A stretch of 64,000 nucleotides of DNA. Source: Escherichia coli. GTDB taxonomy: Bacteria; Pseudomonadota; Gammaproteobacteria; Enterobacterales; Enterobacteriaceae. Below the pieces are notes generated by a model, which saw only the letters and a program-made list of their open reading frames with translations, ran no database searches and had not been told where the DNA came from. The position numbers were made by a program, and so were the translations under genes. The stretch's first letter is position 1; each line of letters starts with the position of its first letter. Where the stretch lies: the NCBI RefSeq assembly GCF_013315695.1, contig NZ_CP054353.1. One strand, written 5' to 3'. Positions 5,641-14,520 of this stretch are shown one piece after another.

Positions 5641-7392
<1,752 letters not shown>

Positions 7393-7407
7393 TAAGGAGT
7401 TTTGATT

Positions 7408-7713
7408 ATGACCGTACGTATTCTGGCTGTCTGTGGCAACGGACAAGGCAGTTCCATGATCATGAAGATGAAAGTGGACCAGTTTTTAACCCAATCAAAC
7501 ATTGACCACACGGTAAACAGCTGCGCGGTTGGCGAATACAAAAGCGAGTTGAGCGGCGCGGATATCATCATCGCTTCTACGCACATTGCGGGCGAAATCA
7601 CCGTGACCGGCAACAAATACGTGGTTGGTGTGCGCAACATGCTCTCTCCTGCCGACTTTGGCCCGAAACTGCTGGAAGTGATCAAAGAGCATTTCCTGCA
7701 GGATGTGAAGTAA
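7408..7713 (+). CDS. ulaB: UlaB, ascorbate PTS EIIB
   Basis: 101 aa, [16 protein letters not shown] with active-site Cys. Confidence 0.9.
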
Positions 7714-7722
7714 GGACGCGCC

Positions 7723-8160
7723 ATGAAATTACGTGATTCGCTGGCGGAAGCTGAGACATGGCAGGACGCAGTGAAAATCGGCGTGGACCTGCTGGTAGCG
7801 GCAGATGTGGTAGAGCCGCGTTACTACCAGGCGATTCTGGATGGCGTTGAACAGTTTGGTCCTTATTTCGTTATCGCTCCGGGGCTGGCAATGCCGCACG
7901 GGCGTCCGGAAGAGGGCGTTAAGAAAACCGGTTTCTCTCTGGTAACGCTGAAAAAGCAGCTGGAATTTAACCACGACGACAACGATCCGGTGGATATCCT
8001 CATCACCATGGCGGCGGTTGATGCCAACACTCACCAGGAAGTAGGCATCATGCAGATCGTCAACCTGTTTGAAGATGAAGAGAATTTCGACCGTTTACGC
8101 GCCTGCCGTACCGAGCAGGAAGTACTGGATCTCATTGACCGCACCAACGCGGCAGCTTAA
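7723..8160 (+). CDS. ulaC: UlaC, ascorbate PTS EIIA; about 9 codons shorter than the K-12 protein as recalled
   Basis: 145 aa, [24 protein letters not shown]...; recalled K-12 UlaC is 154 aa with [23 protein letters not shown]. Confidence 0.8.
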
Positions 8161-8173
8161 GAAGGAATTGAAC

Positions 8174-8824
8174 ATGTCATTACCGATGTTGCAAGTCGCG
8201 CTGGACAACCAGACTATGGATAGCGCCTACGAAACCACTCGCCTGATTGCCGAAGAAGTCGACATTATCGAAGTGGGTACCATTCTGTGCGTGGGCGAAG
8301 GCGTGCGTGCGGTTCGCGATCTGAAAGCGCTCTACCCGCACAAAATCGTGCTGGCAGACGCCAAAATTGCCGATGCGGGCAAAACTCTTTCTCGTATGTG
8401 CTTCGAAGCCAACGCTGACTGGGTGACCGTAATTTGTTGTGCGGATATCAACACCGCCAAAGGTGCGCTGGACGTGGCAAAAGAGTTTAACGGCGACGTG
8501 CAGATCGAACTGACCGGTTACTGGACCTGGGAACAGGCGCAACAGTGGCGCGACGCAGGTATTCAGCAGGTGGTTTATCACCGCAGCCGTGACGCGCAGG
8601 CCGCTGGCGTGGCGTGGGGTGAAGCCGATATCACTGCGATCAAACGTCTTTCCGATATGGGCTTCAAAGTCACCGTCACCGGTGGCCTGGCGCTGGAAGA
8701 TCTGCCGCTGTTCAAAGGCATTCCAATTCATGTGTTTATCGCCGGTCGCAGCATCCGTGATGCCGCTTCTCCGGTTGAAGCCGCGCGTCAGTTCAAACGT
8801 TCCATCGCCGAACTGTGGGGCTAA
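8174..8824 (+). CDS. ulaD: UlaD, 3-keto-L-gulonate-6-phosphate decarboxylase
   Basis: 216 aa from ATG 8174, [36 protein letters not shown]... Confidence 0.9.
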
Positions 8825-8833
8825 GGAGCGGAT

Positions 8834-9688
8834 ATGTTGTCCAAACAAATCCCGCTTGGCATCTATGAAAAAGCGCTCCCCGCCGGGGAGTGCTGGCTGG
8901 AACGCCTGCGACTGGCAAAAACGTTGGGCTTCGATTTTGTCGAGATGTCGGTAGATGAAACGGACGAGCGCCTGTCGCGCCTCGACTGGAGCCGCGAGCA
9001 GCGTCTGGCGCTGGTGAATGCGATTGTTGAAACCGGCGTGCGTGTGCCGTCCATGTGCCTTTCTGCCCATCGTCGTTTCCCGTTGGGCAGCGAAGATGAC
9101 GCGGTGCGGGCGCAGGGGCTGGAGATTATGCGTAAAGCCATCCAGTTCGCCCAGGACGTTGGCATTCGCGTGATCCAGCTGGCGGGCTATGACGTTTACT
9201 ATCAGGAAGCCAATAACGAAACGCGTCGTCGTTTCCGTGACGGCCTGAAAGAGAGCGTTGAGATGGCGAGCCGCGCGCAGGTGACGCTGGCGATGGAGAT
9301 CATGGATTACCCATTGATGAACTCCATCAGCAAGGCGCTGGGCTACGCGCACTATCTCAACAACCCGTGGTTCCAGCTCTACCCGGATATCGGCAACCTG
9401 TCGGCGTGGGACAACGATGTGCAGATGGAATTGCAGGCCGGAATAGGGCATATCGTCGCGGTGCATGTGAAAGACACCAAACCTGGCGTCTTCAAAAACG
9501 TGCCATTTGGCGAAGGCGTGGTGGATTTCGAACGTTGCTTTGAAACGCTCAAACAGAGTGGCTATTGCGGGCCGTACCTGATTGAGATGTGGAGCGAAAC
9601 GGCGGAAGACCCGGCGGCAGAAGTGGCGAAAGCGCGTGATTGGGTGAAAGCGCGCATGGCCAAAGCAGGCATGGTGGAGGCTGCATAA
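8834..9688 (+). CDS. ulaE: UlaE, L-ribulose-5-phosphate 3-epimerase
   Basis: 284 aa, [25 protein letters not shown]..., TIM-barrel sugar-phosphate epimerase. Confidence 0.9.
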
Positions 9689-10323
9689 TGCAAAAGCTAA
9701 AACAGCAGGTGTTTGAAGCCAACATGGATCTGCCGCGCTATGGGCTGGTGGTGATCAAGCCCAGCGGCGTCGCCTACGAAACCATGAAAGCAGACGATAT
9801 GGTGGTGGTTGATATGAGCGGCAGGGTGGTGGAAGGGGAGTATCGCCCATCTTCCGACACCGCGACGCATCTCGAACTCTACCGTCGTTACCCGTCGCTT
9901 GGCGGCATTGTCCATACCCACTCCACTCATGCCACCGCATGGGCGCAGGCGGGGCTGGCGATCCTGGCGTTAGGCACCACGCACGCTAACTACTTCTTTG
10001 GTGATATCCCGTGTACGCGTGGATTAAGCGAAGAAGAGGTGCAGGGTGAGTATGAACTGAACACTGGCAAAGTGATTATCGAAACGCTGGGTGACGCCGA
10101 GCCGCTGCATACGCCGGGAATTGTGGTGTATCAGCACGGGCCGTTCGCCTGGGGGAAAAATGCCCACGATGCGGTGCATAACGCGGTGGTGATGGAGGAA
10201 GTGGCAAAAATGGCGTGGATTGCGCGCAGTATTAACCCACAACTGAATCACATCGACAGCTTCCTCATGAATAAACACTTCATGCGTAAGCACGGTCCTA
10301 ACGCCTATTACGGGCAGAAGTAA
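9688..10323 (+). CDS. ulaF: UlaF, L-ribulose-5-phosphate 4-epimerase (class II aldolase family); carries an in-frame 17-codon deletion
   Basis: ATG at 9688 overlaps the ulaE stop; 211 aa, [30 protein letters not shown]...; the AraD/SgbE/UlaF family has ...[25 protein letters not shown] here. Confidence 0.8.
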
Positions 10324-10330
10324 GCAGTGC

Positions 10331-10380
10331 GCCCCGGAATTATTACCTCCTGCGGGATGTAATTGGTCTGATTCCGGGGC
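10331..10380. other. Perfect 10-bp inverted repeat with 30-nt spacer, downstream of ulaF
   Basis: gccccggaat (10331-10340) and attccggggc (10371-10380); no flanking T-run. Confidence 0.5.
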
Positions 10381-10419
10381 CGCTTCAGTTAAAAAATCAT
10401 ATAAACAACAGGTGTTTTT

Positions 10420-10971
10420 ATGGCTATCAATGGATTGTTTGTCAGAACGGATCCGCAGCGTCGCCGCTATGGCGTTGCGTTACTTGTGGGTGTGCTTTCA
10501 GGAATTATTTCAGCATTTGTTAAATGGGGAGCGGAAGTCCCCTTGCCACCGCGCACATTTTCCGGTGGTCGCGATGAATTTAACCCGCCGTATATCTTTC
10601 TACGAGATTATTTAGGTATCGACCCAACCCAAACTGTGTATACCTTCTCGGAACATATTATCAACCCGGTGATGGTGACGCATATCATCTTCTCCCTGGT
10701 TTTTGCGATAGGGTATTGTGTTGTCGCGGAAATTTTCCCGAAAGTGAAATTATGGCAGGGGATATTAGCAGGGCTTATTGTGACAGTGGCAGTCCACGGT
10801 ATATTTTGCCCGGCGCTGAATTTAACGCCGCCGCTCACTCAATTGCCTTTTGACGAATATGCGTCTGAAATCTTGGGGCATATTTTCTGGTTCTGGATAA
10901 TAGAGATTATGCGCCGCGACTTACGTAATCGCATTACTCATGAGCCGGATCCGGAAGTCGCAATTCGGTGA
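10420..10971 (+). CDS. Small inner-membrane protein, DUF1440/YagU-like
   Basis: 183 aa, ATG with AGGTG RBS 5 nt upstream; four hydrophobic segments; motifs [69 protein letters not shown] resemble YagU-type proteins (from memory). Confidence 0.65.
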
Positions 10972-10980
10972 ATAACCGTA

Positions 10981-11006
10981 TAAAAAAGCCCCCTGCGAAG
11001 GGGGCA
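10981..11006 (-). terminator. Rho-independent terminator for yjfY
   Basis: gccccctgcgaagggggc hairpin; the T-run follows on the minus strand. Confidence 0.6.
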
Positions 11007-11045
11007 AAGCAAACTATGGCAATGTTTCGTTGGTTATACCTGGTG

Positions 11046-11321
11046 CTAGCGATAAATATCCGCGCTGGCGTGCATATTGCCGTTACTCCCCGGTTCCCGC
11101 ATTAGAATTACGTGGTAGTACGTTGCGCCCTGCGCATCTGTCTCTTCATTTAATGCCTGACGTGCTTCGCTTTCAGTGGCGAAATTATGATTGATATAAA
11201 TCACGCCTAAGCTCTGTACGTCGTCCATATTTCTGGACTGGTGGTTATTAATTTCAATGGCTGCCCATGTATTTGCACTTAGCAAAAGCACAGCCAGAAG
11301 GGCTAAAACACGACTGAACAT
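11046..11321 (-). CDS. yjfY: YjfY, DUF1471 small secreted protein
   Basis: 91 aa, MFSRVLALLAVLLLSANTWAAIEINN..., signal peptide. Confidence 0.8.
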   Translation of the reverse strand: MFSRVLALLAVLLLSANTWAAIEINNHQSRNMDDVQSLGVIYINHNFATESEARQALNEETDAQGATYYHVILMREPGSNGNMHASADIYR

Positions 11322-11629
11322 AGATACCTCCTCGACGGCTGACTTTGTGTGCTCTCCTCTGTGATGATCTTCTGATTTAATTTTAATCAATGATAAAGAA
11401 GTTGATGGTGACCATTTCTGATGCAGTTGTTCGAAAAAACACTGTGACGGAATGTGATGAACTTCAAATCAGGGAGTTAGTTCTTTTGAGCGAAAGATGA
11501 GATTTATTTGTCGGCTGGCCTTGAGTTTAGCGGGGCATACAAGTACTATAACGCGTCATTTTTCAGCCGACCTTTAACACGTTCCTTGCCTCCCCGGGAT
11601 TCGGCTGACCCAGACAGGAGGCTGAATAA

Positions 11630-12043
<414 letters not shown>

Positions 12044-13157: not shown

Positions 13158-13952
13158 TTAGTTTCGCAAGTAGATCCATTCACCATTCTCTTGTGTCCAT
13201 AAGTCAGGATGGTTTGCTGGCGTTAGATGCATACGATCACTCCTTATGTCTCGGTCCTGCGGCACTCGCTCGAAACCTAAACCCGAGTAGATTGCTGCTG
13301 AATTTGATAAGGAACGTAGACCAATTTTCAAATCATGGGGTAAATCAGAATACGCGTTTAGCAATGCAGCAATGATGAATCCGAGGGCATTAGAAACGCC
13401 TGTAACAGTGCGAAGTTGGTCGATATAAAGATCGATTGTTGGTAGTTCAGATGACCAGCAATTAGGCATTTGGGCAGGAAGGGTTACAACGTATCCTATC
13501 GTTTGGCCGGTATAGTCTGGAGTACCATAACCAGGTCCCAAAACCACTTCGTGTATTGTGTATTTACTGTTGGGTTCGAAGGATTCGACATCTTGCAATA
13601 AATATTTCAGTTCTGCGGTTAACCTCGCACCCGCGTAAGCTTTATTGTATTTCTGGGCGTGAATATTATCTAATGTAGCTTCATGGTTCCATCCAAAAGA
13701 ATTATCACCATTCATTGTTACTCCATCGTAAGCATTACACTTCGTTGCTAACTTATTGAATGCTTGCCAGTCAGAGAGATCTAGTTTGTGGATCTCAACA
13801 GTACGTCTGCCATCGCAATTATGATCTCTTCCACGATTTGGCAGTAATGTAGCACGTGCATATTGATGAAATTTTAATTTTACTGGTTTGTCGGTGGACG
13901 AAAAATAGGGTGAATATGCAGGAAATGAATAAATAGTCGTTGGTAATGTCAT
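13158..13952 (-). CDS. yjfZ: YjfZ, uncharacterized protein
   Basis: 264-aa ORF, AT-rich relative to neighbours; no motif I can assign. Confidence 0.7.
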   Translation of the reverse strand: MTLPTTIYSFPAYSPYFSSTDKPVKLKFHQYARATLLPNRGRDHNCDGRRTVEIHKLDLSDWQAFNKLATKCNAYDGVTMNGDNSFGWNHEATLDNIHAQKYNKAYAGARLTAELKYLLQDVESFEPNSKYTIHEVVLGPGYGTPDYTGQTIGYVVTLPAQMPNCWSSELPTIDLYIDQLRTVTGVSNALGFIIAALLNAYSDLPHDLKIGLRSLSNSAAIYSGLGFERVPQDRDIRSDRMHLTPANHPDLWTQENGEWIYLRN

Positions 13953-14172
13953 TGTAATGTTACCTGTTTAATGTTTTTATAAATATCGCAGCTGATGTTC
14001 ACAGAAAAAGAATCGATATTAATAAAAATAAGTTTGTTTTCTGAAGTAGTGAAAATAGCGGATGGTGAAAGATATTAATATCAAAAATCGCTCATTATGG
14101 ATATAACGATGCCCCCGGGGAGAAAATGACTTCCACGCCTTCTACCATACATTCTTGTTGTGCGGTATGTAA

Positions 14173-14520
14173 TTATTCTACGCTGTTGGTATCGGTGCGT
14201 TTGTTAATCATCTGGTTAACCAGCCACAAAAAGCCATTGAGAAAGTTATTGATTCTACATGGAATTATTATATTTCTAATCCCTGGTTTTTAAAAGTTGT
14301 GCATAGTGAAAATCAAAGTAAAGGTGTGCATTATGCAAAATCACAGCGTCTCTTAGAAATTAACCATACGCACTTGCAGTTAATGGAATCCTTATTGGAT
14401 GAAGGGAAGAAACACAATATTTTTAAGCCAGATAGCGACCCATTGCAGGTGAATATTAATATTGCTGCGCTTGGGGGATATTATTTGATCAACCAGCATA
14501 CGCTTGGCCTGGTTTATCTG
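14173..14520 (+). pseudogene. ytfA: ytfA remnant: C-terminal fragment of a TetR-family regulator, no HTH domain, 3' end abutted by the IS
   Basis: Frame opens after TAA at 14170-14172 and reads ...[22 protein letters not shown]...[24 protein letters not shown] (ligand-domain-like), then runs into the IS left end. Track ORF 14299..14790 is a chimera of this frame and IS sequence. Confidence 0.5.

Follow-up and report, generated by a model that had tools for sequence, protein, structure and literature searches.

The genes ulaF and yjfY are neighbours in Escherichia coli K-12, separated by a short spacer, but in the E. coli DNA studied here, a stretch of 64,000 nucleotides (the window), the same interval holds a complete gene related to yagU. 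Was this gene added to the interval, or did K-12 lose it? A first-pass annotation, made from the sequence and an open reading frame list, had described the gene as a small accessory insertion into core synteny. Our analysis favours the opposite direction. The best overall explanation, to which we attach a probability of roughly 0.75, is that a YagU-like gene is ancestral at this position and was deleted in K-12, with the proposed role and the proposed read-through transcription from the ula operon that are discussed below. The features on which the argument turns are collected in Table 1; the coordinates given earlier, 10324-11006, span the entire ulaF-yjfY spacer and not the gene alone. The chromosome of E. 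coli strain KL53 matches window positions 10200-11450 with 100% identity; papers on KL53 gave no phylogroup for it.

Table 1. Features of the ulaF-yjfY interval, in window coordinates
Feature	Position	Strand	Basis and remarks
ulaF, final enzyme gene of the L-ascorbate (ula) operon	9688..10323	+	211 aa; 51-bp in-frame deletion
Post-ulaF hairpin	10326..10384	+	Outer stem holds the 10-bp inverted repeat; folding and covariation
TAAAAAA direct repeat, left copy	10390..10396		7 bp; read from the sequence; within an imperfect 17-nt repeat
Shine-Dalgarno AGGTG	10410..10414	+	5 nt before the ATG; kept in occupied alleles
DUF1440/YagU-family CDS	10420..10971	+	183 aa; ORF list, Pfam, RefSeq, AlphaFold2, dN/dS
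TAAAAAA direct repeat, right copy	10981..10987		591 bp from the left copy; doubles as minus-strand T-run of the yjfY terminator
yjfY intrinsic terminator	10988..11005	-	GCCCCCTTCGCAGGGGGC then TTTTTT; common to occupied and empty alleles
yjfY (DUF1471 family), convergent neighbour	11046..11321	-	ORF list, annotation

The identity of the gene was established by its product. The reading frame begins at the earliest available start codon, and both its length of 183 codons and the good ribosome-binding site claimed for it were borne out. The protein matched Pfam family PF07274 (DUF1440) over the complete profile (positions 1-135 of 135), scoring 153.7 bits where the cut-off is 34.7 (E 3.9e-45), in agreement with the earlier assignment to DUF1440/YagU. 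No family was returned by an NCBIfam scan of the protein at E <= 0.01, that library apparently having no DUF1440 model. Aligned over residues 5-182 with YagU of K-12 (b0287), the type member of PF07274, the protein showed 57% identity, with 71% positives (E 1e-81). It is all but certain that the ulaF-yjfY gene is a member of the YagU/DUF1440 family. Hundreds of genomes already have this gene annotated, and its family is known; in KL53 the same CDS appears in RefSeq between ulaF and yjfY as WP_000996728.1, "YagU family protein".

The likeness to YagU extends to the full length of the Pfam family, the four-helix plan, the conserved motifs, the low G+C content and the RefSeq name. The two genes differ in position, yagU lying at the paoA-ykgJ locus and the window gene in the ulaF-yjfY slot. 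They also differ in structure, in that YagU has a Cys-containing periplasmic loop of ~18 residues that the window protein lacks. Finally, yagU was matched in ~4,300 further genomes, whereas the window gene is accessory in E. coli.

Prediction of the protein's architecture gave a result close to the four transmembrane segments first proposed. An AlphaFold2 model (pLDDT 74.9) contained four long helices, at residues 17-39, 83-105, 111-132 and 144-173, whereas by hydropathy three segments were strong and the fourth was weaker and amphipathic. Lysine and arginine were concentrated in three places, the N-terminus, the loop at 106-110 and the C-terminus, following the positive-inside pattern. The predictions fit a small, stand-alone inner-membrane protein of four helices that would have both its N- and C-termini inside. 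In an alignment of 34 distant full-length members, with identities down to 26%, residues G118, H126, P131 and E150 (window-protein numbering) were invariant, and G28, K35, P43, P44, P57, H88, Y99 and G114 were near-invariant. The polar conserved residues (K35, H88, H126 and E150, together with the PPR loop) would lie, on the model, in the half of the bundle nearer the periplasm. An exhaustive profile search among 1.84 billion representatives identified 356 clusters at 50% identity, all of them stand-alone proteins, mostly full-length at ~150-240 aa with some shorter fragments, and no domain fusion hinting at function was present among them. Searches of solved structures found no relative with the family profile and no convincing relative by fold comparison.

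A gene that is dispensable in most E. coli, and that adjoins a damaged ulaF, might be suspected of being a decaying or non-functional remnant. The damage to ulaF in KL53 is a 51-bp in-frame deletion (junction near 9741) between two copies of the 9-bp direct repeat GGGCTGGTG. The encoded UlaF has 211 aa, compared with 228 aa (a 687-bp gene) in all other loci examined; the 17 residues removed include the WGNVS stretch, and UlaF may be inactive in this strain. The YagU-like gene itself bears no such marks. Its 552-bp frame was intact in every allele examined, the ribosome-binding site was conserved, and the window protein carried every family-invariant residue. Values of dN/dS were 0.01-0.05, both among E. 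coli alleles and in comparison with E. whittamii, with dS reaching 0.17 within E. coli. These low ratios indicate that the gene is under purifying selection, and the suggestion that it is a remnant can be practically dismissed.

To place the gene within the species, the ulaF-yjfY interval was compared across E. coli. The gene and its junctions were found in 603 of 5,426 complete genomes (11%). All but one of the 606 gene copies in E. coli were chromosomal, and at every carrier locus examined the gene occupied the ulaF-yjfY slot. Alleles were 95.7-100% identical to that of the window; among the carriers was SE11, a phylogroup B1 strain. The earlier statement that K-12 has no annotated gene in this interval proved correct. 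K-12-type strains, including EV36 and XL10-gold, showed a ulaF-yjfY spacer of 128-129 nt without the gene and, like BL21, O157:H7, LF82 and APEC O78 strains, contained the distant yagU paralogue only. A single junction, GCCGTTTTTCAAAAAAAGCCCCC (...GCAGCCGTTTTTCAAAAAAAGCCCCC...), was common to all 11 empty E. coli loci read. In the occupied allele, the two copies of TAAAAAA bracket the segment that is missing from the empty ones. A shared junction and bracketing repeats together fit one old deletion.

These observations could also describe the reverse event, a recent horizontal insertion of an accessory gene into the spacer, with the inverted repeat left as a scar. Of the complete E. coli genomes, 89% lack the gene, K-12 types included, its G+C content of 47.5% is below the 55-58% of the ula genes, and the 7-bp direct repeat at both ends is readable as a target duplication. 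Orthologues in other Enterobacterales, moreover, are found in varied contexts. Accessory islets and mobile cargo do show such features: presence that varies among strains at one core position, and short direct repeats at both ends. The segment departs from such elements in having no mobility genes: the DUF1440 CDS is its sole gene, no transposase, integrase or recombinase was found in it or beside it, and the nearest IS1 is ~2.7 kb away, past rplI. Terminal inverted repeats flanking the segment were likewise not found, the only strong inverted repeat being wholly upstream of the gene. The low G+C content is common to all family members (every orthologue, and yagU too, falls at 45-50%), and the direct repeat also fits a deletion by slippage between A-runs. 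Differences of up to 4.3% between alleles within E. coli further argue against a recent arrival.

The inverted repeat was central to the original proposal, which had the gene bracketed by a perfect 10-bp inverted repeat on the ulaF side and by the yjfY terminator on the other. Both elements exist, but the former does not mark an edge of the segment. Its two arms, 10331-10340 and 10371-10380, are both upstream of the gene and belong to a hairpin that begins directly after ulaF ends and has a folding energy of -32.3 kcal/mol (z = -4.1). The hairpin was also present in empty E. coli alleles, in occupied and empty Salmonella alleles and in Pseudocitrobacter, with stems that differed in sequence and stayed complementary. 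When seven variants were aligned (occupied and empty alleles of E. coli and Salmonella, and Pseudocitrobacter), 8 of 17 hairpin pairs were seen to be maintained by two-sided changes. Since the hairpin occurs in empty sites and is conserved across three genera through compensatory changes, it was rejected as an insertion boundary. An Rfam search of positions 9500-12000 at a permissive threshold gave no match at the hairpin. The same family collection placed an RpsF leader (110 bits) at 11566-11650 (+), ahead of rpsF where one is expected, and a sub-threshold match to the Salmonella sRNA STnc280 at 10976-11049 (-), over the yjfY 3' end and terminator, with 28 bits against a gathering threshold of 80.

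Evidence from other genera bears on which way the change went. A scan for orthologues in one genome per GTDB species produced 53 loci. The order ulaE-ulaF-gene-yjfY-rpsF was found in E. whittamii and in Pseudocitrobacter faecalis. The protein's 90%-identity cluster also included Salmonella enterica proteins, and contigs of that species showed the arrangement ulaABCDEF-gene-yjfY-rpsF-priB-rpsR-rplI. The slot is thus filled in Salmonella and Pseudocitrobacter as well as in Escherichia, contrary to what would be expected of an accessory insertion. Nucleotide identities between the window and E. whittamii were 93.1% for the gene, 93.5% for ulaF, 94.1% for ulaDE and 95.9% for yjfY; those with Salmonella enterica were 79.5% for the gene, 82.2% for ulaF, 85.7% for ulaE and 81.9% for yjfY. 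In both comparisons, the divergence of the gene tracked that of its flanks. Adjacency to ulaF was observed further afield, the gene being directly 3' of ulaF in Budvicia and 26 nt after it in Hafnia alvei and H. paralvei, with the ribosome-binding site alone in between. The Escherichia-group genera (Escherichia, Salmonella and Pseudocitrobacter), Hafnia and Budvicia represent three families. A neighbour-joining tree of the proteins followed taxonomy, and the ula-linked members formed three separate clades.

The Pseudocitrobacter locus showed an additional feature. Between P. faecalis and window positions 6900-10323, the ula genes were 91-95% identical in nucleotide sequence, while the DUF1440 gene was 75% and yjfY 69-72% identical. 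This disparity suggests that the two genera have exchanged the ula operon.

Occupation of the same slot across genera, co-divergence with the flanks, a tree in accord with taxonomy, the family-wide G+C content and the low dN/dS together argue that the ulaF-yjfY slot is ancestral and that K-12 has the deleted state, a conclusion we consider likely on these sequence comparisons. The description of the gene as an insertion is therefore not upheld, and a recent horizontal insertion appears very improbable. The slot would be ancestral in the Escherichia-Salmonella-Pseudocitrobacter lineage, with the linkage to ulaF reaching Hafnia and Budvicia. The empty allele of ~89% of complete E. coli would have arisen by one deletion of ~591 bp between the two TAAAAAA repeats, joining the post-ulaF hairpin to the yjfY terminator. 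We infer the polarity of this event, both states being present in E. coli and in Salmonella. The species-representative scan returned no Escherichia other than E. whittamii and no S. enterica representative, so that an ancestral gene requires several losses.

The situation in Salmonella enterica raises a further alternative. Both states occur at the slot, the empty spacer being 128 nt; a non-random sample contained ~360 empty places and ~79 that were occupied. Presence and absence might then be a long-lived polymorphism held by balancing selection in E. coli and Salmonella, and not the product of one-way loss. The occupied state is the minority allele in both species. In E. coli, the occupied and empty versions of the hairpin next to the indel (~65 nt, window 10324-10390) differed by 31%, a distance like that separating Escherichia from Salmonella; for the adjacent ulaF and yjfY the figure was only 2-5%. 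In Salmonella, identity between the two alleles was high in ulaF (98.5%) and much lower in yjfY (73%) and in the hairpin (65%). Hairpin divergence is thus 31-35% within each species, next to 1.5-5% in the adjacent ulaF, and in E. coli the flanking genes do not separate occupied from empty strains. Such a contrast between hairpin and flanks implies that the alleles are very old, unless one of them came in from a diverged lineage. The second possibility accounts for the pattern without balancing selection, as a deletion allele imported and spread by homologous recombination would leave the same traces, and rapid evolution of the hairpin by compensatory change may be explanation enough. Hairpins of E. 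coli and Salmonella, empty or occupied, were 56-70% identical in all pairs, and like the junctions they do not discriminate between one deletion shared by the two species and two deletions. Considering also the non-random Salmonella sample, we regard balancing selection as unlikely, and loss of an ancestral gene remains the preferred reading.

The short spacer that separates the gene from ulaF bears on its expression. The gene is on the same strand as ulaABCDEF, the operon for anaerobic L-ascorbate utilisation, and directly downstream of its last gene. Downstream of the hairpin, the empty alleles have UUUUU and Pseudocitrobacter has U8, which turns the hairpin into a terminator there. Occupied E. 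coli alleles and E. whittamii have GCUUCAGUU at this point, with no U-run. A consensus scan, which is weak evidence, found no sigma-70-like promoter in the 96-nt spacer (10324-10419); its sole good -10 hexamer, TATAAA at 10400-10405, would leave the ribosome-binding site no room. As this allele has neither a U-run nor a predicted promoter in the spacer, the YagU-like gene would probably be transcribed by read-through from ulaABCDEF, that is, during L-ascorbate fermentation. We put co-transcription with ula at even odds; termination or processing of the transcript at the hairpin is still conceivable. The ula operon as defined in K-12 does not include the gene, K-12 being without it, and nothing evident points to its product acting as an enzyme or transporter in the ula pathway.

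For the function of the protein, the paralogue offers the nearest guide. Expression of yagU is strongly induced by acid, and its deletion cuts survival at pH 2 ~3-fold (PMC1626474). It responds to external and not to cytoplasmic pH (PMC2270276), and it is a direct target of CpxR (PMC7657598). Acid induction, CpxR binding and an acid-resistance phenotype are properties known for yagU only. By analogy, the window protein would probably act as YagU does, protecting the envelope when the cell meets external acid or envelope stress; we hold such a role to be plausible, though at somewhat less than even odds.

The gene could be an independent stress gene under yagU-like control, responding to external acid and CpxR, with its position beside ula a historical accident. 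Only 6 of the 53 species-level loci were ula-linked; the other 47 had varied neighbours, and the neighbourhood analysis of all 53 revealed no common partner besides ula. With 47 of 53 orthologues away from ula, the linkage to ulaF may be historical and not functional. In Pseudocitrobacter, a full terminator (hairpin and U8) and a spacer of ~80 nt split ulaF from the gene, and yagU itself is monocistronic. Against independent control stand the spacer of the occupied E. coli alleles, with neither a promoter-like site nor a U-run, the 26-nt arrangement in Hafnia, and the retention of the ulaF linkage in Escherichia, Salmonella, Pseudocitrobacter, Hafnia and Budvicia. We therefore consider an independent stress gene possible but not the favoured account. 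A more elaborate proposal would make the gene a conditionally useful seventh ula cistron, whose conserved periplasm-side His, Glu and Lys residues bind a proton, metal or cofactor during ascorbate fermentation, and whose presence or absence has been maintained since ancient times as a balanced polymorphism in both E. coli and Salmonella enterica. This combination seems highly speculative and has little probability.

Several variations were observed in the wider neighbourhood. The distal ula genes (window 8100-10323) were unusually diverse and mosaic within E. coli, differing by 2-7% in nucleotide sequence between strains, and the neighbouring rpsF-rplI genes differed by <0.5%. In KL53, ulaC is annotated as 438 bp, compared with 465 bp in other strains, which may be a real difference or a choice of start codon. 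The region past rplI was strain-variable, containing yjfZ, a TRAP transporter (DctP/DctM) or an HTH and HipA-like toxin-antitoxin module. In KL53 (~13158-14328) it contains a truncated yjfZ (DUF2686) pseudogene, an adjoining IS1B and then a truncated metallophosphoesterase gene.

With the gene annotated and its family known, little here is new; what is mildly interesting is the reversed polarity, the linkage to ulaF and the polymorphism in Salmonella. Reversing the direction of the event makes K-12 the likely derived, deleted state, which bears on the use of K-12 as a reference for 'core synteny'. The parallel presence and absence in E. coli and Salmonella, with very diverged linked sequence, is a small curiosity of population genetics. 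For the YagU family, the recurrent position after ulaF in several genera offers a concrete condition under which function may be probed, namely anaerobic growth on L-ascorbate.
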